The notes: generated by a model not told the origin, from the letters alone. Counted from the stretch's first letter, positions 9,589 through 64,000 are shown. The stretch is 64,000 nt of DNA from a virus (IMGVR_UViG_3300044991_001466); one strand, 5' to 3'. Numbers and translations: made by a program.

Positions 9589-9613
9589 GATTTATATTTA
9601 TTAATAAAAGAAA

Positions 9614-27834: not shown

Positions 27835-28128
27835 ATGAAAAAGTTAATCGAATTAATAAAAACATATAAACTACAGATACTGATTTTTTTAACAGTCATA
27901 TTCTTTTTTCGCTCTTGTAGTAATTCAAGTAAAGTGACTAAATTAGAAAAAATTGTAAAACAACAGGTTACCATTAATGATAGTCTTAAAATCACACATA
28001 AAAACGAAAAAATAGCAATTCACGGTTTTTATGATAATTGGATTACACAAAAAGATAGGGGACCACAGTTAATGGAACTACATTTCATTGTTAAAGAAAA
28101 ACTAAAAAAAGAACAAGAATCTAAATGA
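27835..28128 (+). CDS. putative lipoprotein/membrane protein
   Basis: Hydrophobic stretch ending FFFRSC (lipobox-like). Confidence 0.5.
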   Translation: MKKLIELIKTYKLQILIFLTVIFFFRSCSNSSKVTKLEKIVKQQVTINDSLKITHKNEKIAIHGFYDNWITQKDRGPQLMELHFIVKEKLKKEQESK

Positions 28129-42881: not shown

Positions 42882-42890
42882 GAATAAGAA

Positions 42891-44309: not shown

Positions 44310-44388
44310 AAAAATAAACAGAAATAATTCTACAAAAGAATAGAAAACAATAAAAATGAACTATTTATCAATTAAACAAATCAAATAG

Positions 44389-47997: not shown

Positions 47998-48017
47998 TAG
48001 TAAGTTTAAATAAAATT

Positions 48018-48048
48018 AAAAGGAGACCCTAAAAAGTCTCCTTTTTTT
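48018..48048 (+). terminator. intrinsic terminator
   Basis: AAAAGGAGAC-N8-GTCTCCTTTT plus a T run. Confidence 0.75.
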
Positions 48049-48147
48049 ATTTATACAATACCAACTTTTGTTGTATTTATGTATAATACCTACATAGGTA
48101 ATTAACCGTGATATATATCACAAAGATTTTTAAGGAAACCCATACAT

Positions 48148-51100
48148 ATGGCACAAATAGTAAAACTACGCAGAAGTTCTGTAGCTGGCAATAAACCAGT
48201 TAATGAAACATTACAATTAGGGGAATTAGCATTAAATACAACCGACGGTAAAATTTATTTAGCCGTATCTGGTTCAGATGGTCCTACAATTGAAGAGGTA
48301 ATTACTACAAATGCATATAATACAGGTTCAGTAAATCTTAGTGGTAGTCTAAAAGTTGTCGGTACAGAATATGTAACCGGCTCAGTTATAATAACGGGTT
48401 CTTTATTCGTTAACGGAAATTCATCATTCACATCATTAGTTGTTTCAGGTTCTGACCCTGTTGGTAATGTACAAGCTTACGTTCCACCAAGTTCAGTTTA
48501 TGATCCTGCGTCATTTAACACACCTGAAAGGGTTGCTAGTGGTATTCGTTTTAATTGGAATAATGAAAACTGGACTATTGGTGCAGCAAGAGGTGCAACA
48601 ACCGATATTGATGGTTTAATTTTTAGTAGAAACGGAGTTAAAAAATACATGTTGGACGAAGATGGTAATGCATCTTTATCAGGTTCAATGTATATAAGCG
48701 GTTCATTATTTGTTAATGGTGCTGAAGTTGGAACAGGTAAATTAAACGAAACAACATTTAATTCATATACAAGTTCAAATGTTTCACAATTTGCGGGAAC
48801 ATCATCATTTGCATTAACCGCATCATATGTTGCAAATCCAACATTAGTATCAGGGTCAACAAAAAAATCAACAGTATCGGTAGGAGCAACAACATGGTCA
48901 TTCAATCACCAATTAGGTGAAAGATATCCATCAATTAATGTATTCGATTCAAATGGTTTTGTTGTTATCCCTAAAGATATTGAAACAATAGATGCAAATA
49001 ACTTAAATGTATATTTTTCATCAAATCAGACAGGTACAGTAATTGCAACAATAGGCGGAGGAGGTTCGTCAGGAACGAGTGGTAATGGTACTTCAGGAAC
49101 AAGTGGTTCATCGGGTTCTAGTGGAACAAGTGGTTCATCAGGAACTAGTGGTGTTAACGGTTCTTCAGGTACAAGTGGTGGTTCAGGTTCTTCAGGGTCT
49201 AATGGTACATCAGGTTCATCAGGAACGAGTGGTAGAGATGGTATTGGTGGTACAACACAAACATTTGCAGCATCTACAACATGGTCAGTAGCACATAATT
49301 TAGGTACTAATTTTCCGGCAGTAACTGTTTGGGACGATAATAAAAATGTGGTTATCCCAAGTCAAATAAAATCAATCGATACTAACAATATTGATGTTTA
49401 TTTTGGTAGTCCAATTTCAGGTAGTGTAAATGTAATATTTGGTGGACATGTTGTTAGTGGTGCTATTGACACATCGGCGGTTGGACACATTGTACCTTCA
49501 GTTAATAACACATATGATTTAGGTTCGGCATCAAAACAATTTAGACACTTATATTTGTCATCAGGTTCATTATATATTGACGGACAAAAAGTTTTGGGTA
49601 GTTCAAACCAAGAGTTACAAATTACAACGGATAATGGTCAATCATTAAAAATATTAGAACAAGGTACCGATACTATCACATTACAAAGTGCTGACGGAGA
49701 CATTCAATTAAAAACATCTGCGGGTGGTAATGTATTGTTAGACCCAACAACAGGATTAATTGATTTAAGAGGAACGGTTCAAATACAAGACGGTAATAAA
49801 ATTACAAGTTCAGGAGCAACTAAAGTTGTTTTTGGAAATGATATAGAAGTTACGGGTTCGATTAGAACAAGTGGTACATTAATTGTAAATGGGGTTTCAT
49901 TCTCAGCCATGACATCAGGAACTTCAGGTTCAAGTGGTGGTTCGGGTTCATCTGGTTCAGGTGGTACTTCAGGAACATCAGGTTCTAATGGGTCTAGTGG
50001 AACATCAGGTTCATCAGGAACAAGTGGTACTTCAGGAAGTAGTGGAACGTCAGGCAGTTCAGGGTCATCGGGTACAAGTGGAACCTCAGTAACTGTTTCA
50101 GGTACTAACGATGTAATTGGTAAATTCAGTTCAGGAACATTAGTTAATTCAAATATAACCGATAATGCTTCGGTAGTTAACATTAATTCAAATACAATAA
50201 TCACAGGTTCATTGACGATTACACAAAACTTAAATGTTTTAGGTTCATCATCAATAACTTATACGACAGCTTCCCAATTAAGGGTAGATGATAATGTTAT
50301 TACGGTTAATGCCTCAAGTCCAGGTGTGAGATTTGCTGGTTTATCAGTAATTGATAGTGGTTCGTCACCTACCGTTTCGGGTTCATTCTTATTTGATTCA
50401 TTAAATAATCAATTTGTTTATGTTCACACAAATCAAGGTGTGGTAACATCTTCAGTTGTTATGGTGGGTGCACAAACTTACAATAGTTTAGGAAATGAGA
50501 TTTTACCCACACAAAATAGAATATTAAAATCTTTAGGTCAGGAACATCTTGGTGATTCTAATATTTCAGATGATGGCACAACAGTTAAAATTAGTACAAA
50601 CACAGAAATAACAGGTTCGTTAAGAGTTACAAGTTTAAATATTAACGGAACATCGTACGCCGCTGCTACAAGTGGAACGTCAGGTTCTTCAGGTAGTTCA
50701 GGTACAAGTGGTTCATCAGGAACATCAGGTTCTTCAGGTTCAAATGGTTCTTCAGGAACATCAGGTAGTTCAGGTTCTAGCGGAACATCTGGCAGTTCAG
50801 GTTCATCAGGAACATCAGGTTCTAGTGGTAGTAACGGTTCATCAGGTTCTAGTGGTACAACAACAATCACAAATGCGGTAGATAATAGAGTAATGACAAG
50901 TGTCGGTGGTGTTACGTTAAATGCGGAAGCGAATTTAACATTTGACGGATCAACATTAACAGTAACAGGAGCAGTATCAACAACCGGTAACTTAACAGTA
51001 GGTGGAACATTAACAGAAAACTCATCAGTAAGATATAAGGATAACATTGAAACTTTAAAATATGGTTTAGATAATGTTCTTAAAATGAGAGGTGTTTCAT

Positions 51101-51294
51101 ACATTAAAAAAGATACAGGTGTTAAAGAGATTGGTTTAATAGCAGAAGAGTTAAATGAAATTGCACCTGAATTGGTAAATAAAAATGAAGAAGGATTACC
51201 TGATTCCGTTTCTTACGGTAGAGTAGTTTCATATTTGATTGAAGCAATAAAAGATTTAAAGAAAGAAATTGAAGAACTTAAATCAAATAAATAA
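48148..51294 (+). CDS. tail fibre with Mtd_N N-terminus and C-terminal peptidase S74 intramolecular chaperone
   Basis: N-terminus MAQIVKLRRS...LQLGELALNTTDGKIY; C-terminus SSVRYKDNI...IGLIAEEL...PELV...VSY...LIEAIKDL..EIEELK. Confidence 0.8.
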   Translation: MAQIVKLRRSSVAGNKPVNETLQLGELALNTTDGKIYLAVSGSDGPTIEEVITTNAYNTGSVNLSGSLKVVGTEYVTGSVIITGSLFVNGNSSFTSLVVSGSDPVGNVQAYVPPSSVYDPASFNTPERVASGIRFNWNNENWTIGAARGATTDIDGLIFSRNGVKKYMLDEDGNASLSGSMYISGSLFVNGAEVGTGKLNETTFNSYTSSNVSQFAGTSSFALTASYVANPTLVSGSTKKSTVSVGATTWSFNHQLGERYPSINVFDSNGFVVIPKDIETIDANNLNVYFSSNQTGTVIATIGGGGSSGTSGNGTSGTSGSSGSSGTSGSSGTSGVNGSSGTSGGSGSSGSNGTSGSSGTSGRDGIGGTTQTFAASTTWSVAHNLGTNFPAVTVWDDNKNVVIPSQIKSIDTNNIDVYFGSPISGSVNVIFGGHVVSGAIDTSAVGHIVPSVNNTYDLGSASKQFRHLYLSSGSLYIDGQKVLGSSNQELQITTDNGQSLKILEQGTDTITLQSADGDIQLKTSAGGNVLLDPTTGLIDLRGTVQIQDGNKITSSGATKVVFGNDIEVTGSIRTSGTLIVNGVSFSAMTSGTSGSSGGSGSSGSGGTSGTSGSNGSSGTSGSSGTSGTSGSSGTSGSSGSSGTSGTSVTVSGTNDVIGKFSSGTLVNSNITDNASVVNINSNTIITGSLTITQNLNVLGSSSITYTTASQLRVDDNVITVNASSPGVRFAGLSVIDSGSSPTVSGSFLFDSLNNQFVYVHTNQGVVTSSVVMVGAQTYNSLGNEILPTQNRILKSLGQEHLGDSNISDDGTTVKISTNTEITGSLRVTSLNINGTSYAAATSGTSGSSGSSGTSGSSGTSGSSGSNGSSGTSGSSGSSGTSGSSGSSGTSGSSGSNGSSGSSGTTTITNAVDNRVMTSVGGVTLNAEANLTFDGSTLTVTGAVSTTGNLTVGGTLTENSSVRYKDNIETLKYGLDNVLKMRGVSYIKKDTGVKEIGLIAEELNEIAPELVNKNEEGLPDSVSYGRVVSYLIEAIKDLKKEIEELKSNK

Positions 51295-51764
51295 TGGCGA
51301 CATTAATAGGTACAACTGCAACAACATACAATGCAACATCTACGTCAAATGCAAGTAGTACAATTTGTTCTAATACAATGGCTTTACAACAATGGGGTGG
51401 GAATGTTTCCGTAATATCACCATATTATAGTGCAACACCATATACGGATGTACTTTGTAATAATAATAATTGGCAATGGGTAACAGGGTATGTTAGTTTT
51501 TTAGGATATCAAAGTTACAATAGTACTCAAAATGTTTGGTTTGCACTATCACAATATGGTTTACAAATAACATCGGGGCCAACTAATGACCAATTAATAA
51601 CATTTTCATATTATGAAGACCCAACAAGTGCTTCTAAAAGTTGGTTAAGATTTACAAATCAATATAACGCATCGTGGGCAAATGCCACCTGTTTAGTTAA
51701 TATAACATTATTCGCTCCAAATGCTAATGCAATAACATCACCTATTTTAACAAGATACGTTTAA
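51294..51764 (+). CDS. small fibre-associated protein, paralog 1
   Basis: S.YGL and WLRFTN motifs shared with the next two genes; TAATG coupling. Confidence 0.6.
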   Translation: MATLIGTTATTYNATSTSNASSTICSNTMALQQWGGNVSVISPYYSATPYTDVLCNNNNWQWVTGYVSFLGYQSYNSTQNVWFALSQYGLQITSGPTNDQLITFSYYEDPTSASKSWLRFTNQYNASWANATCLVNITLFAPNANAITSPILTRYV

Positions 51765-52231
51765 TGGCAACTTTACAAAATACAACAATAAATGGTACGA
51801 TAACCGCATCTACGAGTTTCACATCACCACGTATATTAAATAATACAAGTTATAATCATATGATGAGGGAGTATAGTGGAACTGTATCAATACCATCATC
51901 AGTTAATAATGCAACAAACTATGTTGACCTATTTGGTAATCTAGGGGTTCATAATCGTATGTATGGATTTTGTAGTTGGGTAACATATCAATCTCAAATA
52001 CATTGTGGTAGTTTTTATTGGCAATTATCAGAGTATGGACTTAGTACACAAACATTAACAAATTCAGGTAATTGGTCTGTTGCTAGACATAATCCAACAT
52101 ATGGAACAAATTATTTGAGATTTACAAATACAGTAGGAACTGAATGGGGTAATGGTACATATTACTTTGTATTAAATGTACAAGGACCCGGTGATTTCAC
52201 ATCATCATATTTAACACAAAGAGTAAGATAA
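51764..52231 (+). CDS. small fibre-associated protein, paralog 2
   Basis: SEYGL and YLRFTN motifs; TAATG coupling. Confidence 0.6.
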   Translation: MATLQNTTINGTITASTSFTSPRILNNTSYNHMMREYSGTVSIPSSVNNATNYVDLFGNLGVHNRMYGFCSWVTYQSQIHCGSFYWQLSEYGLSTQTLTNSGNWSVARHNPTYGTNYLRFTNTVGTEWGNGTYYFVLNVQGPGDFTSSYLTQRVR

Positions 52232-52671
52232 TGGCAAATTTAATAGCAACAACATCTTCCGAATTAACAGCAACTTCAATAACATCACCAAAAATGTTAA
52301 TGAGTAATACATATGGGGCAATGAATGAATGGACAGGAACGGCGGCGATTAATAATGGTTCTTCCGTTGATTTAATATGTAATGTTAGTGGATACGCAAG
52401 AACAATTGGACTTTGTAATTTTTTTAATTTTACAACGGGAACATGGAGATATGGAATATTTGAGTTTGATGTATCAAGATATGGATTACAACACACACCA
52501 ATTTTATCGTGGGGAGATTATTCAGTATCTCATTATCAAGAAGGTAATGTTGACAGAAATTGGTTAAGATTTACCAATACATCAGGACAAAATGGATTAA
52601 CTGTTTATTTTAATATAAGAATATTAAATTCATCGGGGTACGAATCGTCAATATTAACAAGAGTAAAATAA
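52231..52671 (+). CDS. small fibre-associated protein, paralog 3
   Basis: SRYGL and WLRFTN motifs; TAATG coupling. Confidence 0.6.
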   Translation: MANLIATTSSELTATSITSPKMLMSNTYGAMNEWTGTAAINNGSSVDLICNVSGYARTIGLCNFFNFTTGTWRYGIFEFDVSRYGLQHTPILSWGDYSVSHYQEGNVDRNWLRFTNTSGQNGLTVYFNIRILNSSGYESSILTRVK

Positions 52672-52680
52672 TTATATAAT

Positions 52681-52947
52681 ATGATACATGAATTAGACAA
52701 CGGAGACCCATTATTAAGTCCAATCGACGGAACACCACTTACTGAAGATCAAAGATATGGATTTTATATTGGTTTATCTGAACATTACGCAACACAATAT
52801 CAAAGAGATAGACAACAAATATACCCATCATTAGGTAATCAATTAGATATGTTGTGGCATGAATTAAATGTGAGCGGTAGTTTAACAAGTAATGGTGAAT
52901 GGTTTAATAAAATAAAAGAGGTTAAAGAAAACAATCCAAAACCTTAA
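52681..52947 (+). CDS. tail fibre assembly-type small protein
   Basis: R...YPSLGNQLDMLWH...W...IKEVK...PKP pattern common next to phage fibre genes. Confidence 0.55.
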   Translation: MIHELDNGDPLLSPIDGTPLTEDQRYGFYIGLSEHYATQYQRDRQQIYPSLGNQLDMLWHELNVSGSLTSNGEWFNKIKEVKENNPKP

Positions 52948-52950
52948 TAA

Positions 52951-53814
52951 ATGGCAAATCTTACAAATCTTACCATAAACGACACTGGTTATATACAATT
53001 ACCATCGGGTACAACGGCACAAAGACCCGTATCACCATTGACTGGTTATATTAGATTTAATACAACTATGGGTTTAGTTGAATATTACAACGGTACTTAT
53101 TGGATAGATCAAACAACCGGTAGAATTGCGGAAGGTGGTATTGTAACATCAAACTTATTACTTCATTTAGATAGTGGTAAACCAACGAGTTATCGCGGTG
53201 GTAATGTGTGGTATGATGTTAGTTCACAATGTGCACATGGGATATTTGTAAACAGTCCAACATATACACCAGCTGATGGTTCGGGAGGTACCGTTTCATT
53301 TGACGGAACTAATGATTATATTAGAATTTCTACATTAAATACATTACCAACAACACAAATAACTATGGAAGGTTGGATTAAACCAACAAGAACAGTAAGT
53401 ACAGGTACAGTAAGAGGTGGTGTGGTTTCTGCAACAAATACAACATATTTGGGTATATTTAATTCCGCAGATGGTGGTAGTACACACTCTTTACATTGGG
53501 CAAATACTACCGATAGTAGTAGACCATATAGTGCAGTTGGTAATATTCCCAATAATGTTTGGTCACACATTGTAGGTACATGGGATGGTTCAACGAGTAG
53601 AGCGTATGTGAATGGTACTGAAGTATGGTCTGCGGCACAGACAGGGACAATTGCCGCTGCCACATATGTAGTTGGAACATATGGAAGTGGATTGACAGAT
53701 GGGTTGCATAATTTTCAAGGACAAATTGCAATTGCAAGAATGTATAGTATAGGATTAAGTGGAGCTCAAGTTTTACAAAATTATAATGCTCAAAGAAATA
53801 GATTTAATATTTAA
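52951..53814 (+). CDS. LamG/concanavalin-like receptor-binding protein
   Basis: LLLHLDSG, FDGTNDY, ITMEGWIKP, WSHIVGTWDG...YVNG and ARMYSIGLS..QVLQNYNA. Confidence 0.8.
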   Translation: MANLTNLTINDTGYIQLPSGTTAQRPVSPLTGYIRFNTTMGLVEYYNGTYWIDQTTGRIAEGGIVTSNLLLHLDSGKPTSYRGGNVWYDVSSQCAHGIFVNSPTYTPADGSGGTVSFDGTNDYIRISTLNTLPTTQITMEGWIKPTRTVSTGTVRGGVVSATNTTYLGIFNSADGGSTHSLHWANTTDSSRPYSAVGNIPNNVWSHIVGTWDGSTSRAYVNGTEVWSAAQTGTIAAATYVVGTYGSGLTDGLHNFQGQIAIARMYSIGLSGAQVLQNYNAQRNRFNI

Positions 53815-53819
53815 ATGTA

Positions 53820-54527
53820 ATGGCAAGTTTAAAAAATTTAACAATTAACGACACTGGATTTATTGGATTACCAACAGGTAGTACAGCTGAAAGACCATCT
53901 CCATCTAATGGATATTTAAGATATAATACTACATTAGGTAGACCCGAAGTTTATATTAGTAGTTGGTTAAACCCATACGCCAGAACGGAAGGTTATTTAC
54001 ATTATTACGAAGGTAGAGATGCAAATTTATATACTGCAAATTGGAATAATAGCACAACGTATTCAATGTTAAATTTTGGTGGATTAGGTCATATTACGGC
54101 ACATGGTTGGACAACTGGTCCTGCAACATATACATTAACATTAGGTTCAATTCCAATACACACACAAGTTCGTTATTTAGTATTTTGGCATTTAGTAGAT
54201 TCGTTGGATACTGAAACAAGTAATTTGTACTTAATGAACTCAGCCGGAACTGAAACTGAATTTCTAAGATTTACAAAGATATATAACGCGGTACCAACCA
54301 CATCGGTTTTACAATCGGGAGCAACAGCAACGTGGAGTGGTGCTAAATCGTACACATATAGACCTTGGGCAAGTGGAGCATATGGAAACGATGGTTACTA
54401 TTTATTTGATAGTGGATATTATGACCACACATCCACATCATTTACTGCAAGACACGTATGTGGTGCAGACCAAGCACAAGCGGATGAAGCGATGTATCTT
54501 TCACACGTTCAATTATGGATTAAATAA
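53820..54527 (+). CDS. fibre-tip protein sharing the LP.G.T..RP N-terminal module
   Basis: N-terminus paralogous to 52951 and 54534; C-terminal domain unrecognised. Confidence 0.6.
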   Translation: MASLKNLTINDTGFIGLPTGSTAERPSPSNGYLRYNTTLGRPEVYISSWLNPYARTEGYLHYYEGRDANLYTANWNNSTTYSMLNFGGLGHITAHGWTTGPATYTLTLGSIPIHTQVRYLVFWHLVDSLDTETSNLYLMNSAGTETEFLRFTKIYNAVPTTSVLQSGATATWSGAKSYTYRPWASGAYGNDGYYLFDSGYYDHTSTSFTARHVCGADQAQADEAMYLSHVQLWIK

Positions 54528-54533
54528 TAAATT

Positions 54534-56195
54534 ATGGCAACACTTAAAAATACAACAATAACAAGTTCTACGGGATATTTGGGGTTACCATCTGGAACAG
54601 GAACACAACGACCATCACCAACAACTGGAATGATGAGATATAATTCAAGTCGTACTGAGGTTGAAGTATATGATGGTACCAAATGGATGAGTGTACAAAA
54701 AAGAAAAGAAAATTATAGTACATCTGGTTTAGTTTGTTATATAGATGCAGGTGACCCTAATTGTTATAGTGGTAATGGTAGTACATTAACCGATTTATCA
54801 GGAAATGCTAATAATTTAACTCTACCTGGTTCAGGTGTTTCATTTAATACTACCGGAGGAGGTTCTTTATATTTTGATGGAACCGCAAGAGCAAACGTTG
54901 CACATCATAGTTCATTGGATTTTACTAGTACACAACAATATACTGCGTTAATTTGGGTAAATCCATCATTAGGTGGTGGAACTTGGCACGGATTAATTAG
55001 TAAAGGAGATTCACAACAATACGCCGCAACATTGAGAAGTGCATTCGGATATATTCATTATGAAACAAATTACTCATTGGCAGCGATAGATACACCCAAT
55101 AATTCAATAATAGGAAGTAAGTGGCAACAAGTTGTCATTAGAAGTGACGGGTCATCAAAAGCAACATTTATTGATACAATACGATGTGCATATGTAACAG
55201 GTGCCGTTAGTTCAACTACAAATACTGAAACATTGAGATTTGGTGAAGGTAATACGGGAGAATTACTTATTGGTTATTTAGGAGCGGTTATGATTTATAA
55301 CCGAGCATTAAGTGATGAAGAAATTGGAAATATATTTAATGAACAAAGAGGTAGATATGGAGTAGATGCACCATTAGGATCGGCATTTAATCCAGCGGAT
55401 TCGGCACAAACAATAAAGACCTTAAATACAAATGCACCAAATGGTGTATATTATATAAATTTACCCAATATCGGCCCGAGAAAAACATTTTGTATTATGG
55501 ATAGTACATATGATGGAGGGGGTTGGATGATGGTAATGAAAGCCACACGAGGAACTACTTTTAATTATGGGGCAAGTTATTGGACCACACAAAATGTATT
55601 AAATCAAAATAATTTAAATCAAGATGATGGTGATGCCAAATACGATGCATTCAATTATTTTGAAGGTACAGATTTAATGGCTAGATGGCCCGATATTCCA
55701 ACTACTGGTGGTAGTATTGCGGGAACAGGAAATTGGATATGGATGGAAAAAGGGTTTAATGGTGGTAGAGCTAGTACGCGAACAAATTTAGTAGATTTTT
55801 TTACTAATGCAGGAACATACGAAAGTGGTGATGGTGGTACTTATGGTGGATATTTTTTAAGAGATGCAAAAACTTTTACTGGTTGGGCAAGTGGAGTATT
55901 TTCAAGTCAAGTAGATATTAGATTTTATGGATTTAATTTTAGAAACAACCCATTGTATTTTGGTGCAACCGATGCCAAAGTTAGATGGGGGTTTGGTTGG
56001 AATGAAAACGGAGAAGGGTTGTATACATCACCCGCTACTTTGGCAGTTGGACCATATAGAGGTTCGGATGATGTAAGTGGTGGTATTGGTATGGATAGTA
56101 GATATGGTAATTTCTCAGGTGGAGATTTGATTGGTTGTTGTCAAGATACGACTGGTATAAATAGAAGTGCAAGAGTGGAAGTCTATATTAGATAA
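54534..56195 (+). CDS. LamG + fibrinogen-C-like receptor-binding protein
   Basis: LamG (WQQVVI...IYNRALSDEEI), then NGVYYI...FCIMDSTYDGGGWMMVMK. Confidence 0.75.
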   Translation: MATLKNTTITSSTGYLGLPSGTGTQRPSPTTGMMRYNSSRTEVEVYDGTKWMSVQKRKENYSTSGLVCYIDAGDPNCYSGNGSTLTDLSGNANNLTLPGSGVSFNTTGGGSLYFDGTARANVAHHSSLDFTSTQQYTALIWVNPSLGGGTWHGLISKGDSQQYAATLRSAFGYIHYETNYSLAAIDTPNNSIIGSKWQQVVIRSDGSSKATFIDTIRCAYVTGAVSSTTNTETLRFGEGNTGELLIGYLGAVMIYNRALSDEEIGNIFNEQRGRYGVDAPLGSAFNPADSAQTIKTLNTNAPNGVYYINLPNIGPRKTFCIMDSTYDGGGWMMVMKATRGTTFNYGASYWTTQNVLNQNNLNQDDGDAKYDAFNYFEGTDLMARWPDIPTTGGSIAGTGNWIWMEKGFNGGRASTRTNLVDFFTNAGTYESGDGGTYGGYFLRDAKTFTGWASGVFSSQVDIRFYGFNFRNNPLYFGATDAKVRWGFGWNENGEGLYTSPATLAVGPYRGSDDVSGGIGMDSRYGNFSGGDLIGCCQDTTGINRSARVEVYIR

Positions 56196-56236
56196 TAATA
56201 TTTTAATTATTGAAATATTTTTCTTATATTATAGGT

Positions 56237-56923
56237 ATGAATAATATCGGTATAGGTATAATGTGTTTCGGTGATGTTTCCTATTTTAACAGTACAAAAG
56301 AAAAAGTTACCAATTTAAAAGATATTGGAATTGATTGTTATATCTTAACCGATGAACCAGAACAATTTACAACTAAAACCATACACTACGGTAGACACCT
56401 CAAGTCATATCATGATAAGATAATATTAGTTAAAGAAATATTAAAAAATCACAATATCTGTATTCTAATAGATGCCGACACTTTTATCTCCGACTATTCA
56501 TTTATCGAACAGTTAGTTAACTATCCATACCAAAATGGAATTACATATGTTGAAACTCTATTAAGTCATAAGATAAAAAAAGAATTCATAAGAGATATTC
56601 AAATGAATATTGGAGATATTGATTGGTTAAATTATAAAACATATCTCCAAAAAATATATCCACAATATGGTGATTTAGAGACCATTTACGAGTACTTCTT
56701 GGTTTTCAATAAAGAAGGATTAAAAGATAATTTCTTTCTCTTATATGAGAAGTTACAATCAATTAAAGAGGCGTGTGATGTGATGAGTGGAAAGAAAATT
56801 GTGGTAGGGTCAGCTGAAGGTGTATCAATACAAGTTGCCGCAAAAATTACGGATACCCAAATACAAAAAGATGTGGTATTATTTGAATTAATTAAAGATA
56901 AAATTAAAAATGATTCAAGATAA
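56237..56923 (+). CDS. putative GT-A fold glycosyltransferase
   Basis: YILTDEP, SYHDK and LIDADT (DxD). The ATG at 56237 is preferred. Confidence 0.5.
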   Translation: MNNIGIGIMCFGDVSYFNSTKEKVTNLKDIGIDCYILTDEPEQFTTKTIHYGRHLKSYHDKIILVKEILKNHNICILIDADTFISDYSFIEQLVNYPYQNGITYVETLLSHKIKKEFIRDIQMNIGDIDWLNYKTYLQKIYPQYGDLETIYEYFLVFNKEGLKDNFFLLYEKLQSIKEACDVMSGKKIVVGSAEGVSIQVAAKITDTQIQKDVVLFELIKDKIKNDSR

Positions 56924-57665
56924 CAATTATATAAAAAAATACATCACCAACAATCAAGAATTTGATGAAATGGGTGATGAAATATTAAAAAGTGTACCGT
57001 TTCGTTGGAGCCATGGTGCAACAGATTTACATATGGGTGATGGTATCATTGTGTATGCGTTGATACAACATATGAGAGCAAAGACTTGCGTTTGTTTAGG
57101 TAGCGGTGGTGGTTTTATTCCACGTATCATGACACAAGCAAGAATTGATTTACACAAACAAGAAATATTTGAAGGTAACGGTAGTCATAATTGGGGAGAC
57201 ATAGGTGAGACCTATATTGTTGACGCAATGAACGGAGTTGGTGGACAAGTTAATTGGTTTGATGAAGATAGTTTTCTTAGAAAATGGTTTCAACCAAGAA
57301 TAATTAATACCACAACCGAAGATGCCTTTCATAACTACTTCGTTTTAAACGATATAAAGATTGATTATTTACATATTGATGCCGGACATAGTTATGAAAA
57401 TGTTAAAGAAGACTTTGAACTTTATACACAGATATTATCAACGAATGCAATCGTATCTATACACGATACCGACCCAAATTATGCCGACAAATACATTGTA
57501 ACCAACGAGGTTAAAGATAGGGGTGATTTTGATGATTGGACAGGACCAATTAAGTTTAACCAAGAAATCGATGAGACAAAATGGGAAAAAATTAATCTAT
57601 TTAATTTTGGTATAGTTAAAAACAAACCATCATCCACAGGAATTACAATTTTACGTAAAAAATAG
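56910..57665 (+). CDS. class I SAM-dependent methyltransferase (Methyltransf_24-like)
   Basis: VCLGSGGG, IDYLHIDAGHSYE.V..D and IHDT. Confidence 0.75.
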   Translation: MIQDNNYIKKYITNNQEFDEMGDEILKSVPFRWSHGATDLHMGDGIIVYALIQHMRAKTCVCLGSGGGFIPRIMTQARIDLHKQEIFEGNGSHNWGDIGETYIVDAMNGVGGQVNWFDEDSFLRKWFQPRIINTTTEDAFHNYFVLNDIKIDYLHIDAGHSYENVKEDFELYTQILSTNAIVSIHDTDPNYADKYIVTNEVKDRGDFDDWTGPIKFNQEIDETKWEKINLFNFGIVKNKPSSTGITILRKK

Positions 57666-57674
57666 CCTTAGACA

Positions 57675-57706
57675 TTTGATTTATACGTAAAAATTTCTTA
57701 TATTTT
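57675..57706 (+). promoter_or_regulatory. Bacteroidota-type promoter (TTTG-N20-TAnnTTTT)
   Basis: TTTG at 57675-57678, a 20-nt spacer, and TATATTTT at 57699-57706 just before the ATG at 57713. Confidence 0.45.
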
Positions 57707-57712
57707 ATACTA

Positions 57713-58564
57713 ATGGTAAGATTAGTTACAGTTATAGGTCACGGAGTTAAATTACTACCTCATTTCATTAAACATTATTCAAGATATGTTGATGAAATTA
57801 ATATAGTTGTTTACCAATCAGACTTACATCCAGATTTACATGATGAAGTGTCACAATACATTGAAAATCAAAACAATGTAAAAATTGTACATACATTAAC
57901 GGAAAGAATATTTGATTGGGAAAAGGTAACTAGTTTATATAATTTCATAAAATCAAAACACAAAAATGATTGGTGGGTAGTCGCCGACATTGATGAGTTT
58001 CATTTATACCCTGATGATGATTTACCAAAAGTAATTCAAACATGTGAAGAGTATGGTTTTGAAATGGTTAGAGGTGGGTTTATTGATAGAATAGGTAGAG
58101 GTGGAGAGTTTGCAGAATTGGTTGACGATGTATCTATATGGGACCAATTTCCGAACGCAGGATTTTTTAGATATCCAATGAGTAGTGCAAACCCTAATAA
58201 AATATGTCTAATGAAAGGTTTTGTTGAAATAACATCAGGACAACATTATGCTAAAATAGATGGTCAAACAACTTGGAAATGGCAAGGATGGAATCATCCA
58301 CAAATAAACCCAATCGATTTCGTTCAAGTACATCATTTCAAGTGGGATAGAACATCAATCGAAAGAATAAAAACCGTTGCTGAATTAAACGAAGATTATG
58401 CATATTCAAATGAGTATTTCACAATGTTTAAAGAATTAATAAAAACTAAATTTAGAATAAATCTAATGGAAAAAGATTTCATGTTTGAATTGGGTTTGAT
58501 ATACCCCAAATATGAATTATATAAAAATTGGAATAAATTAATAAACAAAATAATATCAATATGA
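57713..58564 (+). CDS. glycosyltransferase family 2/92-like
   Basis: LLPHFIKHYS..VDEI, WWVVADIDEFH and GG(F)IDR. Confidence 0.7.
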   Translation: MVRLVTVIGHGVKLLPHFIKHYSRYVDEINIVVYQSDLHPDLHDEVSQYIENQNNVKIVHTLTERIFDWEKVTSLYNFIKSKHKNDWWVVADIDEFHLYPDDDLPKVIQTCEEYGFEMVRGGFIDRIGRGGEFAELVDDVSIWDQFPNAGFFRYPMSSANPNKICLMKGFVEITSGQHYAKIDGQTTWKWQGWNHPQINPIDFVQVHHFKWDRTSIERIKTVAELNEDYAYSNEYFTMFKELIKTKFRINLMEKDFMFELGLIYPKYELYKNWNKLINKIISI

Positions 58565-58586
58565 CACATATAAATATTGGATTAGA

Positions 58587-59993
58587 ATGAGATTAGCGAT
58601 AATAGTACCATATAGAGACAGAAGAGACGATTTAGATGTGTTTATACCACACATGGAAAAATTTTTAGCTAATAAACAAATAGATTATAAAATTTTTGTT
58701 GCTGAACAATCTGACGATAGGGCTTTCAATTACGGTAAAATATGTAATGCAGTTTTTAATGAAATAAAAGATGATTACGATTATTTTTGTTTTCATGACG
58801 TAGATTTATTACCATTAAATGACGATGCTGATTATTCTTATAAAGACATCCCAACACATTTGGTTTTTGAGAATAAAAATAAAGAAAAGATATTACCATA
58901 CAGCCAATATTTCGGTGGTGTGGTAATTTTTAGTAAAAACGATTTTATAAAGATAAACGGATTTGGGAATGACTATTGGGGTAAAGGATATGTTGATTTA
59001 GATTTATTATATCGATGTTTAAAAAGTAAAATTACCTTAACTAAAAATTACGATTATAATCTTAAAGAAATACTCAAATCTGATTTAAAATATAGAAACA
59101 TTACCAAAAAGGTTTCTAAAATTGTTTTACCTGAAAATTCAATTATAGTTAATAGAAAATCTGACGTCATTGCCACCAATTTTACGTTAAGTTTTCATTA
59201 TAAAGAAGTGAGACAAAATAGGAAAAAAATAGTAATTTTTAGGACACTTGATTTTGGAGATTTCCAAATATTCACCATAAATGGACAAATGATTTTACAA
59301 TTTTTTGATAAGGGTAAACTATTCCAAATCGACATTAACAACGAAGTCGATATAACTCAGTTTAATCATTTTACATTTACTCACGATTACAATAAAAAAG
59401 AATTTATTATCTATATAAATGGTGTTGAAAAATTTAATATTAATTATACCATAAATTATAATTTTACCAAAAAAAATGTTATATTAGGTGATATAGACAA
59501 TAGCGTAAAAATTGAATTAATTGATTTTAAATTGTTTACAAAAAAACTAACAAAAAATGAAGTTAATAGAAATTTTTACTATGGGGTAAAATCAAATTGT
59601 TTTGAATTTAATAAGATTACGTTTTACGATAATGTAACAAAATTTATTGATGAGCATTTTAACATTTGGGAAATTATGGGTAAAACAACATCCGATAAAG
59701 AAAACTTAATAATTGGTGAAATGTTAATGGTAGATGTGGTTAATAAACAATTAAATAAAGTAAAATATACACCAAATAAAATAAAAGGAAGATATGAAAT
59801 TAGAGGTAATAAATTTGATAACATTGAAACAACGTATCATCCCGATATATTAGAAAATAAAAACACTTACTATAATGATTTGTTGACTAATAAGATTAAT
59901 ACAAGTAAGTTTGGACTAAAAAGTGTTAAGTACACTTTATTGAATAAAATAGAATATAATAATAACACAGAATGGTTAAAAATATCTCTTTAA
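58587..59993 (+). CDS. GT7 galactosyltransferase-like protein with LamG insertion (atypical catalytic motif)
   Basis: IIVPYRDR, FNYGK, FHDVD and YFGGV; WGKGYVDLD in place of WGWGGEDDD. Confidence 0.75.
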   Translation: MRLAIIVPYRDRRDDLDVFIPHMEKFLANKQIDYKIFVAEQSDDRAFNYGKICNAVFNEIKDDYDYFCFHDVDLLPLNDDADYSYKDIPTHLVFENKNKEKILPYSQYFGGVVIFSKNDFIKINGFGNDYWGKGYVDLDLLYRCLKSKITLTKNYDYNLKEILKSDLKYRNITKKVSKIVLPENSIIVNRKSDVIATNFTLSFHYKEVRQNRKKIVIFRTLDFGDFQIFTINGQMILQFFDKGKLFQIDINNEVDITQFNHFTFTHDYNKKEFIIYINGVEKFNINYTINYNFTKKNVILGDIDNSVKIELIDFKLFTKKLTKNEVNRNFYYGVKSNCFEFNKITFYDNVTKFIDEHFNIWEIMGKTTSDKENLIIGEMLMVDVVNKQLNKVKYTPNKIKGRYEIRGNKFDNIETTYHPDILENKNTYYNDLLTNKINTSKFGLKSVKYTLLNKIEYNNNTEWLKISL

Positions 59994-60550
59994 CAAAGTA
60001 TCAAGTTGAAAATCTTGAAAATATCGCAGATTTATTAGAAAGTATTGATTATTCTAAAGAAGATGCTGAAATTAAATTTTTAACTCTTATTGTGAATATT
60101 GAAAGCCTTTTACCAAAATCAAATATTTTTGATTACGTGTTTAAGACGGATATCACGAAAGATAAGAAATTAGAATTACAGGAAAATAAAAAACAAAAAT
60201 TTGTGGTAATAAATGACAATGTGGAGTTGTTAAAATCATTACCAAATGATATTGAATTTAAGTGGAGCCAAGTAAATAATAAATACGATATCATAAATAA
60301 CACATACGATGAAATAAAAAGTATCGAATCAAACATCCAAGATATTCACACACAAATGAGTGAAATAGCTTCTGAAAACGATGTGTTATATGGTGAGATA
60401 GAAAATATTGACTTTGAAATATCACAAATTGATAACTACATTGAGGAGTCCGAATGGAAAGTAGACTTGGATAGTCACGAAGAAATAACATTTAATAAAA
60501 TAAAAGAAAAATTAATAATCGAAAAAAAGTTTAATTATGGAAATATCTAA
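59972..60550 (+). CDS. acidic coiled-coil hypothetical protein
   Basis: 192 aa with a heptad-like C-terminal half. Confidence 0.5.
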   Translation: MVKNISLTKYQVENLENIADLLESIDYSKEDAEIKFLTLIVNIESLLPKSNIFDYVFKTDITKDKKLELQENKKQKFVVINDNVELLKSLPNDIEFKWSQVNNKYDIINNTYDEIKSIESNIQDIHTQMSEIASENDVLYGEIENIDFEISQIDNYIEESEWKVDLDSHEEITFNKIKEKLIIEKKFNYGNI

Positions 60551-60782
60551 AGAAGAACAACACGAATTAAATAAAAAGGGTGTTGAAGCTATGACAAGAA
60601 TTGCAACCTCATTGGAGGGTATAAACGATTGGGTTTATACATTAAATACCGCAGCATGGTCAGAGAGACTAGAGTGGTATTTAAACGAATTTTATCAATT
60701 AGCTAAAGCAAAAACTATCGGTTCATCCGATAGACCAACAAAAGAATATGAAGAAGAAACTGGCGATAATAGTCCCTTATAG
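60537..60782 (+). CDS. hypothetical protein
   Basis: 81-aa ORF overlapping both neighbours. Confidence 0.45.
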   Translation: MEISKEEQHELNKKGVEAMTRIATSLEGINDWVYTLNTAAWSERLEWYLNEFYQLAKAKTIGSSDRPTKEYEEETGDNSPL

Positions 60783-61995
60783 GGATAGAAGTACTCATTT
60801 AAATACGTTTATTTCATACATGGAATCTTATTTAAAAGATTACACATATGAAATCATTGTTATTAATCAAGCGGATAACCAACCATTTAATAGAGGTAAA
60901 TTATTAAACATCGGCGCAAAATATGCCATAGACAATGGTTTTGATTATTTGTGTTTTCACGATGTAGATATGTTACCAATTAATGCAGATTACTCATATC
61001 CTAAAGAACCAACAAGTCTAATATCTGAATTGGAAAATAAAGAAGGTAATATATTTTTTACTTACTTTGGAGGTATCACTTTATTTAATATTCAAGATTT
61101 TATAACGGTGAATGGATATTCTAATAACTATTGGGGGTGGGGATATGAAGATACTGATTTATTTTATAGAGTTACACATAGCGGATTATTTTTTGATTCT
61201 GAAATGATTGGTGAGAATGACTATTCTTTATTTTCTGTTGAATTAAAAGAAGAGGATTATATAAAAATACCAATAGACTCTAAATTCATTGATGGCGATT
61301 TTAATATTAAATTAACCACAAAAGTTGAATCTAAGTATTTCGATGAGAATAAAAATTATGATGAATATCCAATATTATCCATACCGGGATATAACATTGG
61401 TATTTTTTATAATTCATTTAATAGATTTTTTATACAGGTTTATGATACTAATAAAAAACCATATTCAATTACAACGGACATTTTAGATGACGTAACATCA
61501 AGTTTTACATTTTCTAAGGTTAGGAATACAATTTCATTCTCAATGAATAACAAATTAATTGGTGAAGTTGTTATGGATAGTCCAATACTTAATTTAGACA
61601 ATGAATTTATGTATATAGGAACGTTCTCTGAAAAAGAAAAAATCGAATTTGATTTAACAATAATTGACATTGAAATTGACGACTATCATTTAGGTACAAA
61701 TGATTATGAATTAATAGGTGGCGTTATTAATTCTGATAAAATGATATCACATAGAACTTCAATACCAAAACCAATTAGAAGAGAAGGGTTATATCGTGAA
61801 TTATATCACGACAGTAACTCATCAATTAACAAATCTTGGGTACATAAAGAAACTAGAAATAATCAAATATTTTTTAATAATTTTGTTAAGCAAAATTTAA
61901 TTGATTTCACTAAAGAAGGATTAAACACACTTCAATATGAATTAATTTCGGAAAAAGATAATAATAACCATAAAATTTTGTCCGTATCATTATGA
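60748..61995 (+). CDS. GT7 galactosyltransferase-like protein with LamG-like insertion
   Basis: IIVPYRDR, FNRGKLLNIG, FHDVD and YWGWGYEDTD. Confidence 0.8.
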   Translation: MKKKLAIIVPYRDRSTHLNTFISYMESYLKDYTYEIIVINQADNQPFNRGKLLNIGAKYAIDNGFDYLCFHDVDMLPINADYSYPKEPTSLISELENKEGNIFFTYFGGITLFNIQDFITVNGYSNNYWGWGYEDTDLFYRVTHSGLFFDSEMIGENDYSLFSVELKEEDYIKIPIDSKFIDGDFNIKLTTKVESKYFDENKNYDEYPILSIPGYNIGIFYNSFNRFFIQVYDTNKKPYSITTDILDDVTSSFTFSKVRNTISFSMNNKLIGEVVMDSPILNLDNEFMYIGTFSEKEKIEFDLTIIDIEIDDYHLGTNDYELIGGVINSDKMISHRTSIPKPIRREGLYRELYHDSNSSINKSWVHKETRNNQIFFNNFVKQNLIDFTKEGLNTLQYELISEKDNNNHKILSVSL

Positions 61996-63404
61996 GTCAT
62001 AAATTAGGGATTTGTATACCATATAGAAATAGAAAAGAACATTTAGATAAATTAGTTCCACATCTTTCTGAACATTTAACAAAACAAGGAATAGAACATA
62101 CTTTTTATGTTGGACATCAACTAGACGATAAATTATTTAACAGAGGGGCGATGAAAAACATTGCAGCTAAATATGCGTTTGAAGATGGGTGCGACTATAT
62201 TGCATGGCACGATGTGGATATGTTACCACAAGAAAATGCGGACTATTCGTACCCATCGGAAACCCCTGTACATATCGCAACTAAATTGTCAAAGTATAAT
62301 TATGGTTTAGGTTATGATCAATACTTTGGTGGCGTTGTATTATTCACAAAAGAACAAGTTGAAAAAACTAACGGATACTCAAATGATTATTGGGATTGGG
62401 GAATGGAAGATGATGATTTATTTTGGAGATCATATTTTGAAGGTATGACAACTGGTGATATCTTTAAAGAATATAAAAGTAAAAAAATAGGTATTTTCAA
62501 TGGAATAAATTCACATGTTGAAATACCTGCTAATAGAAAATTAGTAGAATGTTTAAATAAAAACCATACAATATCTTTTTTAGTTTGTGCAGAACAACAA
62601 CCAGAGAAAGTACCAATTTGGTTAATTGGTGACAAAGAAAAGAAATTTATCGAATATCCAATCTTTGTAAAAACGGGCGGTTACAATTATATGTTATCTT
62701 TTAATAACTCAAGAGCCTTCACGATGAAAGTATTTGACGAAAGAAGAAACCCAATTTATAATTGGATTAAAAGATTTGAATCTCTTTGGACTTGGGTTAC
62801 GTTATCAATAGACACAGAAAATAATCAAATGTATTTTTATCTAAATAACGAACTGACAAGAAATCAATTCGGTACCAAAGAAAATTTACCAATTTCTTAT
62901 GAAGGTAAACTAATGAGATATGATTTAAGAAATCCATTTATGATTGGATTTGATAATTTTACTAACACAAGATTTAAAGGTAAAATTGCAAGAATAAAAC
63001 TATATAATAAATTTTTTAATAGTGAAGAAATAAATAACATAATTGATGATAAATTAGATACTCCACTATTAAATTTTGATTTTGATAATTTAACGCAAGA
63101 GTATCAATTAAACAACATTGATTTAATAGATGAACAAATTCAAGTTATTGAAAATATTATACCATTTAGAAGAGAGGGGGTTTTTGATTGTCTATCACAT
63201 ATAGATGAGGGTTATGTAGGGGGTACGTGGAAAAAAGGTGAAACTACAGCTAAAAATGAAAAAAGGTTTGTTTCTGAAATGCAACAAGGATTGATTAATT
63301 ACAAAGAAGATGGTTTAAATAATATATTGAATGTAATGGATATTGATAATGTAGATGTATCTTTATATCCAAACACTAAATTTATAAATGTAAAAATGAA
63401 ATGA
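61992..63404 (+). CDS. GT7 galactosyltransferase-like protein with LamG insertion
   Basis: CIPYRNR, FNRGAMKN, WHDVD and YWDWGMEDDD; the insert has FNG.NS.VEIP...W.WVTL...YLN...FKGKIARIKLYN. Confidence 0.8.
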   Translation: MSHKLGICIPYRNRKEHLDKLVPHLSEHLTKQGIEHTFYVGHQLDDKLFNRGAMKNIAAKYAFEDGCDYIAWHDVDMLPQENADYSYPSETPVHIATKLSKYNYGLGYDQYFGGVVLFTKEQVEKTNGYSNDYWDWGMEDDDLFWRSYFEGMTTGDIFKEYKSKKIGIFNGINSHVEIPANRKLVECLNKNHTISFLVCAEQQPEKVPIWLIGDKEKKFIEYPIFVKTGGYNYMLSFNNSRAFTMKVFDERRNPIYNWIKRFESLWTWVTLSIDTENNQMYFYLNNELTRNQFGTKENLPISYEGKLMRYDLRNPFMIGFDNFTNTRFKGKIARIKLYNKFFNSEEINNIIDDKLDTPLLNFDFDNLTQEYQLNNIDLIDEQIQVIENIIPFRREGVFDCLSHIDEGYVGGTWKKGETTAKNEKRFVSEMQQGLINYKEDGLNNILNVMDIDNVDVSLYPNTKFINVKMK

Positions 63405-64000
63405 GCGACTTTGACGTAACCAAAAGTGAATTAGATAAGGTAGGTTGTGGTATGTGTTTAGCAAAATGGACACAAGTTACTATGCATTTACACAATGGAA
63501 TGACACACTCATGTCATCACCCTGTACCACATAAAATACCATTAAGTGAAATAAAAGAAAATCCAACAGCATTACACAATACCAAATATAAGAAATTGGC
63601 TCGTAAAGAAATGTTGGAAAATAAAAGACCTGGTGAATGTGACTATTGTTGGAATGTTGAAGATAATTCTAATTCATTTTCAGATAGAGTATTTAAATCA
63701 AATGAATCTTGGTCATTACCACATTTAGAAGAAATTAAAGGATTAAATTGGAAAGCAAATTATAACCCAAAATATGTTGAGGTAAGTTTTTCAAATACAT
63801 GTAATTTTAAATGTGCATATTGTAGTCCAATGGCATCTTCAAAGTGGGTTGAAGAAATTGAAAAATTTGGTGGGTACCCGTTGTCATATAATTTTAACAA
63901 TTTAGAGTGGTTAAAAGAAACTGGTCAGTTACCATATAAACAAACAGAATACAATCCGTATGTGGAATCTTTTTGGAATTGGTGGCCTGAATTGTATAGA
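63401..64000 (+). CDS. 3'-truncated radical SAM enzyme with N-terminal SPASM/twitch-like Cys cluster
   Basis: Not in the ORF track. MSDFDVTK...CLAKW...SCHH...CDYCW, then the CNFKCAYC (CX3CX2C) motif; the frame is open to the window end. Confidence 0.85.
   Translation, partial: MSDFDVTKSELDKVGCGMCLAKWTQVTMHLHNGMTHSCHHPVPHKIPLSEIKENPTALHNTKYKKLARKEMLENKRPGECDYCWNVEDNSNSFSDRVFKSNESWSLPHLEEIKGLNWKANYNPKYVEVSFSNTCNFKCAYCSPMASSKWVEEIEKFGGYPLSYNFNNLEWLKETGQLPYKQTEYNPYVESFWNWWPELYR

Follow-up and report, generated by a model that had tools for sequence, protein, structure and literature searches.

What does a huge phage build with a run of glycan enzymes encoded directly behind its tail-fibre genes, and onto what is the product placed? 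We addressed this in a 64,000-nucleotide stretch (the window) of IMGVR_UViG_3300044991_001466, an uncultured huge phage of lake water, in which positions 56210-64000 hold a block of glycosyltransferase (GT), methyltransferase and radical S-adenosylmethionine (SAM) genes. A preliminary description of this DNA had proposed that the phage glycosylates its own fibre stalks. Our analysis indicates that the block is a phage-encoded cytoplasmic glycan-assembly line, the first half of which lies inside the window. Its combination of a methyltransferase, a GT2-like enzyme, LamG-bearing GT7 enzymes and a twitch-domain radical SAM enzyme is genuine and highly conserved, and no description of it as a unit exists; already known are glycan genes beside phage fibre genes and self-glycosylation by phages and giant viruses (PMC7029224, PMC9614988, PMC12619734). 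As the acceptor, the phage's own virion proteins are our leading candidate, a reading of the sequence that we hold to be possible rather than probable.

A conserved glycan-enzyme block behind the fibre genes

The block consists of co-oriented, tightly packed genes with overlapping or nearly abutting frames, directly 3' of the fibre genes. Family calls are from Pfam unless another source is named, and all open reading frames (ORFs) of the block lie on the + strand.

56210/56237-56923, + strand: GT-A-fold glycosyltransferase candidate (GT6/GT8/GT24-like), 228/237 residues, from AlphaFold2 and Foldseek, alignment and synteny
56910-57665, + strand: class I SAM methyltransferase, Methyltransf_24 (6.6e-10), core gene
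57713-58564, + strand: GT2/GT92-like GT-A glycosyltransferase (Glyco_tranf_2_4, 1.4e-7; Atlas neighbours in GT2/GT92 clusters), core gene
58587-59993, + strand: GT7a, beta4GalT-like with a LamG insert (GT7N 2.6e-22, GT7C 3.4e-14, Laminin_G_3 5.6e-8)
59972-60550, + strand: 192-residue protein of no known family, poorly conserved (Pfam scan, synteny)
60537-60782, + strand: family-less 81-residue protein, conserved within the GT7 array of most relatives
60748-61995, + strand: GT7b, beta4GalT-like (GT7N 2e-22, GT7C 9e-17)
61992-63404, + strand: GT7c, the most conserved GT7 paralogue (GT7C 3e-19, GT7N 6e-18, Laminin_G_3 5e-6)
63401-64000, + strand: twitch-domain radical SAM gene, 5' portion only, running past the window end (weak Radical_SAM match in the window, 0.0084)

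These calls confirm the preliminary inventory of two GT-A-type proteins, a Methyltransf_24-type methyltransferase, three GT7 paralogues and a radical SAM enzyme after the fibre genes. The order needed correction, as the methyltransferase gene stands between the two GT-A genes, and the two small ORFs at 59972-60550 and 60537-60782 had gone unmentioned. No block protein has a hydrophobic segment, indicating that all are soluble. The 228-residue protein had no Pfam match; its AlphaFold2 model, with a predicted local distance difference test (pLDDT) value of 86, adopts a GT-A fold, and its best Protein Data Bank (PDB) matches were BoGT6a, ABO transferases, alpha3GalT and the UGGT catalytic domain (Foldseek E ~1e-6, template modelling score ~0.5). 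On this model the protein is predicted to be closest to the GT6 and GT24/GT8-type retaining transferases, and its D-A-D motif is invariant among 17 homologues. The shared core of the 81-residue protein reads approximately KALEKIANSLD...W.E.ID...WS.R.QYYL.EFH; the protein may be a scaffold or subunit.

The block opens a larger glycan island, whose downstream genes we read from contigs that encode GT7c letter for letter. In full, the first radical SAM enzyme has 461 residues and a second follows with 481, both matching the twitch-domain radical SAM family NF033640 of NCBIfam (1e-99 and 6.5e-91). Past these lie several family-less ORFs, two with SGNH-type GDS motifs, and on the opposite strand an E1-beta-like thiamine-enzyme subunit, a short-chain dehydrogenase/reductase (SDR) resembling GDP-fucose synthase, and a fusion of an SDR with a 2-oxoglutarate-Fe(II) oxygenase; nucleotide-sugar enzymes of the dehydratase/epimerase type are among the genes there. 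The radical SAM array grows and shrinks among relatives: locus L001 (14782-21446) has four such paralogues one after another and then a gene for a SPASM-domain protein, and the window phage has two.

Elsewhere in the window, the preliminary description had named an ADP-heptose gene pair:

22750-23580 and 23582-24346, - strand: HldD-like epimerase and HldE-kinase-like pair (NCBIfam HldD 2.6e-54, HldE kinase domain 5.7e-37)

HldD and the HldE kinase domain are indeed the best NCBIfam matches, both falling under the curated cut-offs. That this heptose-type activation pair serves the block is something we only infer.

We next considered how widely the block is conserved. In a protein set clustered at 90%, 1656 of the candidates scored were significant GT7c homologues; the best 120 were 61-88% identical and lay on contigs of up to 636 kb. 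Confirmed matches place a GT7c relative on at least 542 IMG/VR stretches. Of the 80 IMG/VR loci that matched best, 78 had the complete core (the methyltransferase, the GT2, two GT7s and the first radical SAM gene). GT7a, an extra paralogue present in only some relatives, and the 228-residue GT-A gene, which L001 lacks, are the variable additions. The core also occurred on a contig of 45% G+C from a Firmicute bin and on contigs from bins of Flavobacteriaceae, Flavobacteriales and Pelagibacterales, which are presumably phage contigs caught in these bins of metagenome-assembled genomes (MAGs). Block DNA was found in many lake-water metagenomes, and Flavobacteriia of lake water are the most likely hosts. 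Short contigs near-identical to the GT2, GT7a, GT7b, 192-residue and radical SAM genes were recovered from four lake metatranscriptome runs and lend weak support to expression, DNA carry-over being possible; read depth over the collagen repeats in these runs stems from many organisms at 90-95% likeness and is uninformative, as is the lack of RNA contigs for other parts of the block.

Reference collections gave little to compare. Among 50,697 GenBank phage records, neither megablast of the 56210-64000 stretch nor tblastn of GT7c returned a match, so that no cultured relative was found. PHROGs contained no match for the block GTs, and NCBIfam none for the methyltransferase, the GT2, GT7a, the 228-residue GT-A protein or several downstream ORFs. 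For genome-scale comparison we used four near-complete relatives carrying the block (G001-G004). Three of them span 198-326 kb, two being estimated complete and one 93%; the fourth is 86% complete. By CheckV estimate G004 is 100% complete. The window itself is AT-rich (~32% G+C) and encodes a primase, an exonuclease, SbcCD and a RuvC-like resolvase, together with a sigma factor, ClpP and a long + strand gene run; no tRNA gene was found in its 64 kb. The lineage fits, and may be identical with, the recently named 'moraphages', freshwater jumbo phages of 200-307 kb with predicted Bacteroidota hosts and four core glycosyltransferase groups (PMC12619734).

GT7 enzymes with an internal jelly roll

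GT7c matched Drosophila and human beta4GalT7 and beta4GalT1 both by phmmer (8.6e-33) and by Foldseek (E ~1e-13). Its residues 1-152 are 37-42% identical to these two enzymes, which are also its top Foldseek matches, and its AlphaFold2 model (pLDDT 89) has a GT-A fold. We aligned 48 GT7 sequences, including all three paralogues of the window, and numbered them by GT7c. P10-Y-R-x-R14, FN, H73-D74-V-D76, Y111-x-GG, G137, D140 and D142 were invariant, and W136, E139 and H403 were kept in at least 90% of the sequences. These positions include the UDP-binding PYRxR motif (of the PFRxR type), the metal-binding DVD, the catalytic Glu-Asp pair and the lid histidine, H403. The PYRxR and WG-x-EDD motifs align with those of 3lw6, and a DGLN-type motif lies near the C-terminus of GT7c, where G441 is invariant.

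The domain layout of GT7c is unusual in that a GT7 core (residues 1-153) is followed by a jelly roll (about 160-385) and then by the C-terminal part of the GT7 domain (390-470). The insert of ~230 residues separates H403 and the DGLN-type motif from the core. Searched alone by sequence against the PDB, residues 385-470 gave no significant match. In the AlphaFold2 model the jelly roll is similar to pentraxins and to PAPP-A's LamG-like module. GT7b aligns with its LamG-bearing paralogues, its insert going unrecognised by Pfam. Each GT7 carries a LamG/pentraxin-type jelly roll set inside what appears to be an otherwise intact catalytic domain. By alignment with beta4GalT1, the insertion point falls just before the flexible lid loop, and in beta4GalT1 this loop shapes the acceptor site. 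As for the origin of the inserts, comparison ruled out recent duplication of either the fibre-tip LamG domains or a 195-residue downstream ORF.

The phage GT7s share with metazoan beta4GalT7 and beta4GalT1 (CAZy GT7) the GT-A fold, the DVD, PYRxR and Y-x-GG motifs and the catalytic Asp. Unlike the metazoan enzymes, they carry the jelly roll between catalytic motif and lid, are encoded as tandem paralogues, and have neither membrane anchor nor secretory signal (maximum KD19 hydropathy 0.73-1.11 in the three paralogues, giving no type II membrane or secretory protein), which places them in the cytoplasm. Sequence and models suggest that they are catalytically active inverting transferases of the cytoplasm to which a binding module has been added. 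An invariant Tyr at the position of bovine Tyr289 hints, in the light of beta4GalT1 mutagenesis, at a non-acetylated hexose. GT7-like domains are present in many bacterial genomes and MAGs. In another lineage, locus L213 (8001-13061) encodes a 1686-residue fusion of GH125, GT61, GT7, GT17 and at least two more GT7 domains beside a GH38 mannosidase, which looks like an N-glycan-type toolkit in one polypeptide.

Tail fibres as the candidate acceptor

The genes just upstream of the block encode the proteins that we consider its likeliest substrates.

39009-42881, + strand: collagen-like tail-fibre gene, 1290 residues, 222 of them in Gly-X-Y runs (Pfam Collagen 6e-19, PHROG tail-fibre families)
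42891-44309, + strand: collagen-like fibre gene, 472 residues (Pfam Collagen 3.4e-9)
44389-47997, + strand: collagen-like fibre gene, 1202 residues (Pfam Collagen 1.3e-68, PHROG 5073 7.6e-67)
48018-48045, both strands: strong bidirectional intrinsic-terminator-like hairpin between the third and fourth fibre genes
48148-51294, + strand: collagen-like fibre gene ending in a Peptidase_S74 intramolecular chaperone domain (Collagen 3.7e-19, Peptidase_S74 9.3e-10)
51294-56195, + strand: cassette of small fibre-tip 'head' genes (PHROG virion structural families), two with LamG

The four large fibre genes (39009-51294) match PHROG tail-fibre families and Pfam Collagen, with E-values down to 1.3e-68. 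The GSS/GTS tracts that the preliminary description had placed at 39-51 kb are present in them, their actual nature being strict, proline-poor Gly-X-Y collagen repeats. Gly-X-Y runs in adjacent fibres total 975 residues, the longest single runs reaching ~260, and the X and Y positions are almost exclusively Ser, Thr, Ala, Asp and Asn. The 44389-47997 protein alone has 507 residues of G-[ST]-S-type triplets in two runs, with 28% Ser and 1% Pro. Uninterrupted repeats together with the Peptidase_S74 trimerisation domain of the 48148-51294 protein are as expected of a collagen triple helix; the stabilising Pro/hydroxyproline or charged triplets are not seen, the fibre proteins having 1-3% Pro and 2-3% Lys.

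Other Ser/Thr-rich sequence lies in the fibre tips and near the window start. Laminin_G_3 was found in the fibre-tip genes 52951-53814 (2.9e-20) and 54534-56195 (2e-11). Most of the six fibre-tip proteins begin with an N-terminus rich in Asn-x-Thr/Ser, such as M-A-N-L-T-N-L-T-I-N-D-T, which may be glycosylation sequons or a common anchor motif. The density of N-x-S/T sites is 1.41 per 100 residues in the window and 0.8-1.0 in three relatives. An LP.G....RP motif of the fibre-tip heads was considered as a conserved acceptor and rejected, being absent from G001, G002 and G004. The mucin-like TPTVT tracts reported earlier are real: they belong to a 947-residue putative virion protein (2134-4977) with 28% Thr and 10% Pro, for which no family was found and an Atlas search with the N-terminus returned nothing. 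It has four near-identical Thr/Pro-rich modules, each closing with a C-S-F-G-I-G-V-V-V-L-A-P-S-P segment, and then a Cys-rich C-terminal domain. Its neighbours at 8983-12999 adjoin the fibre genes and GT block in G001.

The position of the block relative to fibre genes is shared. It lies 3' of fibre genes in every genome that could be inspected (the window, L001, L002, G001, G002 and G004), a fibre-like ORF of at least 600 residues lies upstream in 26 of the 34 loci with enough flank, and orientation is uniform from 4 kb upstream of the methyltransferase gene through the radical SAM gene in 53 of 57. Because shared gene order reflects descent, most of this repeated adjacency is not independent evidence, which weighs against reading much into it. 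The most telling case for a virion target is a pair of loci with a different genome layout, L059 (1-19983) and L080, in which a solo GT7c homologue (54-56% identity) without the rest of the block stands between two tail-fibre-like genes and the genes for a nicotinamide mononucleotide (NMN)-adenylyltransferase fusion, terminase and portal, so that the link between GT7 and fibre is retained. A 1438-residue neighbour of the solo gene was considered as a sugar activator and rejected as NMN-adenylyltransferase-like.

Transcription signals were also examined. The 48018-48045 hairpin is the only convincing one in 47-64 kb; on the + strand of 48148-64000 no convincing terminator was found, the sole match being weak and intragenic (54823). 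As the hairpin is the last before the window end, 48148-64000 may be one transcription unit, joining the fourth fibre gene to the block. A sigma-70 promoter scan fell below shuffle expectation and was uninformative. A TATTTAT motif, a candidate late-promoter element, lies ~20-75 nt before the start codons at 8197, 8983, 25160, 39009, 44389 and 48148, and GATTTAT, with one mismatch, precedes the GT2 gene at 57713.

These observations suggest how fibre glycosylation might proceed. Nucleotide-sugar enzymes would make unusual activated sugars, the soluble GT-A glycosyltransferases, five or six in number (the GT6/8-like enzyme, the GT2/92-like enzyme and three GT7s), would add sugars stepwise, and the methyltransferase and SGNH-like proteins would decorate or cap the chain. 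The likeliest targets would be the Ser/Thr-rich fibre proteins, apparently from the same late transcription unit, and progeny would bear glycosylated fibres, for stability, shielding or adhesion. In favour of a virion target, virus-encoded GTs are linked to structural genes, this linkage outlasts genome rearrangement, the enzymes are soluble, and the relatives have no exporter or priming enzyme.

Virion glycosylation of this general kind has precedents. Mycobacteriophages of the Che8/Corndog/Myrna type are reported to glycosylate capsid and tail-tube proteins (Freeman et al. 2023, as cited in PMC12619734 and PMC11256854). Their phage GTs, in some cases with a methyltransferase, are thought or shown to O-glycosylate the phages' own structural proteins in the cytoplasm, as would be the case here; differences are the GT families, the Actinobacteria hosts, the far fewer genes and the targeting of capsid and tail-tube C-termini. 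The lake-phage glycan is a prediction from its genes. Among giant viruses, Mimivirus fibril glycans, collagen glucosylation by L230 and chlorovirus capsid glycans offer a second comparison (PMC9614988). There, gene clusters join the synthesis of nucleotide sugars to soluble GTs and methyltransferases that work on virion fibrils in the cytoplasm, and collagen-like virion proteins are encoded in the same genome. Their hosts are eukaryotic and their enzymes unrelated; L230 uses hydroxylysine, whereas the phage fibres are poor in Lys and no lysyl hydroxylase was seen.

A narrower form of the proposal is that the LamG-bearing GT7s and other block GTs put beta-linked sugars on Ser/Thr of the Gly-X-Y repeats, the glycan holding the triple helix together in place of hydroxyproline or salt bridges. 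The fibres would then be a viral, cytoplasmically made parallel to BclA and to the galactosyl-threonine collagen of vent worms. In BclA-type collagen-like glycoproteins and vent-worm cuticle collagen, Thr-linked sugars stabilise Gly-X-Thr helices, and a (Gly-Pro-Thr)10 peptide became triple-helical once every Thr was beta-galactosylated (PMC11923368). The phage repeats resemble these in being Pro-poor or hydroxyproline-free and rich in Thr/Ser, where O-glycosylation substitutes for hydroxyproline; the known glycosylation enzymes of BclA are unrelated to the block. We consider this form of the proposal improbable, since two relatives have lost or never had the repeats and still encode the enzymes; these relatives would use the same glycan on other fibre segments.

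That last observation also bears on fibre glycosylation in general. The gene calls and fibre adjacency first described were right, and self-glycosylation of the fibres remains the leading reading. Three parts of the argument first made for it are weakened; the following points weigh against it. G002 and G004 retain the block, have no Pfam Collagen match and contain 0 and 18 residues of Gly-X-Y; their Ser/Thr-rich tracts total 132 and 362 residues, compared with 1640 in a third relative and 1059 in the window. Enzymes and substrate thus do not consistently co-occur across relatives, and these two genomes go some way towards the combination of a GT cluster without tracts that had been named in advance as counting against the idea. 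GT7 copy number (2 or 3) showed no correlation with Gly-X-Y tract length. No recognised protein O-glycosyltransferase was identified. GT7 enzymes are known to extend sugars rather than to prime proteins. The analogy drawn with eukaryotic proteoglycans is weak, given the many bacteria with GT7 and the polysaccharide locus L140 described below.

Other acceptors and related loci

Two loci show related GT7s in another genetic setting. L140 (2938-17658), on a 195-kb contig in a Spirochaetaceae MAG bin, encodes a LamG-bearing GT7 33% identical to GT7c, next to two ABC-2 permeases, an ABC ATPase, a GT4, a GT2_4 fusion, two GT2s, an FkbM methyltransferase and a radical SAM/SPASM protein, a locus that forms a cellular counterpart to the block of the phage. 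L131 (10001-21443) lies on a 636-kb, 29% G+C NCBI MAG contig that may be cellular or from a giant virus. Its three GT7 paralogues, of which two have LamG domains, stand next to a Methyltransf_21 protein, a deacetylase, an acetyltransferase and an ABC exporter, with GH116 and GH20 adjacent. Both loci indicate that the LamG insert is not a protein-specific adaptation. In L140 at least, the GT7 family therefore builds a transporter-exported glycan, not a Ser-linked proteoglycan linker; these points, too, count against a fibre target. Transporter-exported glycans are usually assembled on a lipid carrier.

The phage block shares with L140 a GT2_4-type GT, a LamG-bearing GT7, a methyltransferase and a radical SAM enzyme, nearly the same mix; unlike such ABC-transporter polysaccharide loci, it has no transporter, priming enzyme or ligase, and looks like an L140-type enzyme set stripped of its membrane parts. 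This leaves two readings: the phage feeds a lipid-linked pathway of its host, or the enzymes have been redirected to a soluble acceptor such as the fibres. Under the first, the soluble enzymes would act at the inner membrane face on host lipid-linked glycans (O-antigen, capsule or a Bacteroidota protein O-glycan), a host transporter would export the product, and the purpose would be superinfection exclusion or keeping progeny from re-adsorbing to debris. We regard such host-envelope remodelling as rather unlikely, somewhat less likely than a virion target. Besides L140 and the similar neighbourhood of L131, it accommodates the persistence of the block in relatives with scarce Ser/Thr tracts. 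It is also the published reading, untested there, of analogous cassettes of GT, rfaE and radical SAM genes in the hypervariable tail-fibre region of pelagimyophages, taken as host O-chain modification (PMC7029224), a further point against a fibre target. Those cassettes are likewise GT-rich, lie beside fibre genes and come from aquatic myophages; they differ in being described by broad category (mainly GT8), not as a GT7-LamG block.

The membrane route and gene position speak against host-envelope remodelling. Neither the Bac_transf priming phosphoglycosyltransferase (PF02397) nor the ABC-2 permease (PF01061) was found in G001-G004, and no protein with five or more transmembrane segments in the three relatives of 198-326 kb, a crude segment count that is the sole ground for excluding a WecA-type priming enzyme. 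With no phage membrane components, the host would need to supply every membrane-bound part. Surface remodelling takes time before lysis, and its enzymes would be badly placed in a run of co-oriented structural genes that is probably late. The solo GT7c, moreover, keeps its place among fibre, terminase and portal genes. The sole multi-transmembrane protein of the window, at 28125-29078, has 317 residues, approximately four hydrophobic segments and a motif resembling that of the TacA1 antitoxin.

A further possibility, which we judge improbable, is that the enzymes make some other intracellular product: a free or carrier-bound oligosaccharide, a small glycoside, or a glycan on a non-fibre phage or host protein. 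The 81-residue protein, retained within the GT7 array in most loci, could then be a scaffold or carrier, and the radical SAMs might act on a peptide; L001 has its four radical SAM paralogues and SPASM protein, the family includes peptide maturases (weak NCBIfam side matches), and no acceptor can be named from sequence. However, the 81-residue protein lacks the Ser/Thr-rich or Cys-rich core usual in a modified peptide. The radical SAMs fall in NF033640 and have nucleotide-sugar enzymes as neighbours, which fits sugar chemistry, given what is known of twitch enzymes such as BtrN. The scale and conservation of the island also better match a structural product.

DNA hypermodification, in which the GTs would glycosylate hydroxymethylated bases against restriction as in T-even phages, is very improbable. 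Phage GTs do commonly glycosylate DNA (PMC12619734), and G001 and G002 encode strong thymidylate-synthase-family proteins. However, G003 has only a sub-threshold match and G004, in which the block is present, has no PF00303 match, so that the hydroxymethylase needed for known DNA glycosylation is uncoupled from the block. GT7 enzymes are not known to act on DNA, and the block lies in the fibre module, away from nucleotide-metabolism genes. Of the two alternatives that the preliminary description had offered, host-surface modification thus stays alive and DNA hypermodification loses ground.

If the glycan is placed on the virion, phage self-glycosylation would extend from a few actinobacteriophages to very widespread huge freshwater phages. 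It would do so through an enzyme family known mainly from the animal Golgi, here rebuilt with an internal lectin-like domain, and the fibres would offer a natural test of sugars replacing hydroxyproline in collagen-like proteins. If the host envelope is the target instead, lytic jumbo phages would be spending tens of kilobases on changing the surface of the cells they infect. In both cases the block provides a compact lineage marker and a defined enzyme set for assay.

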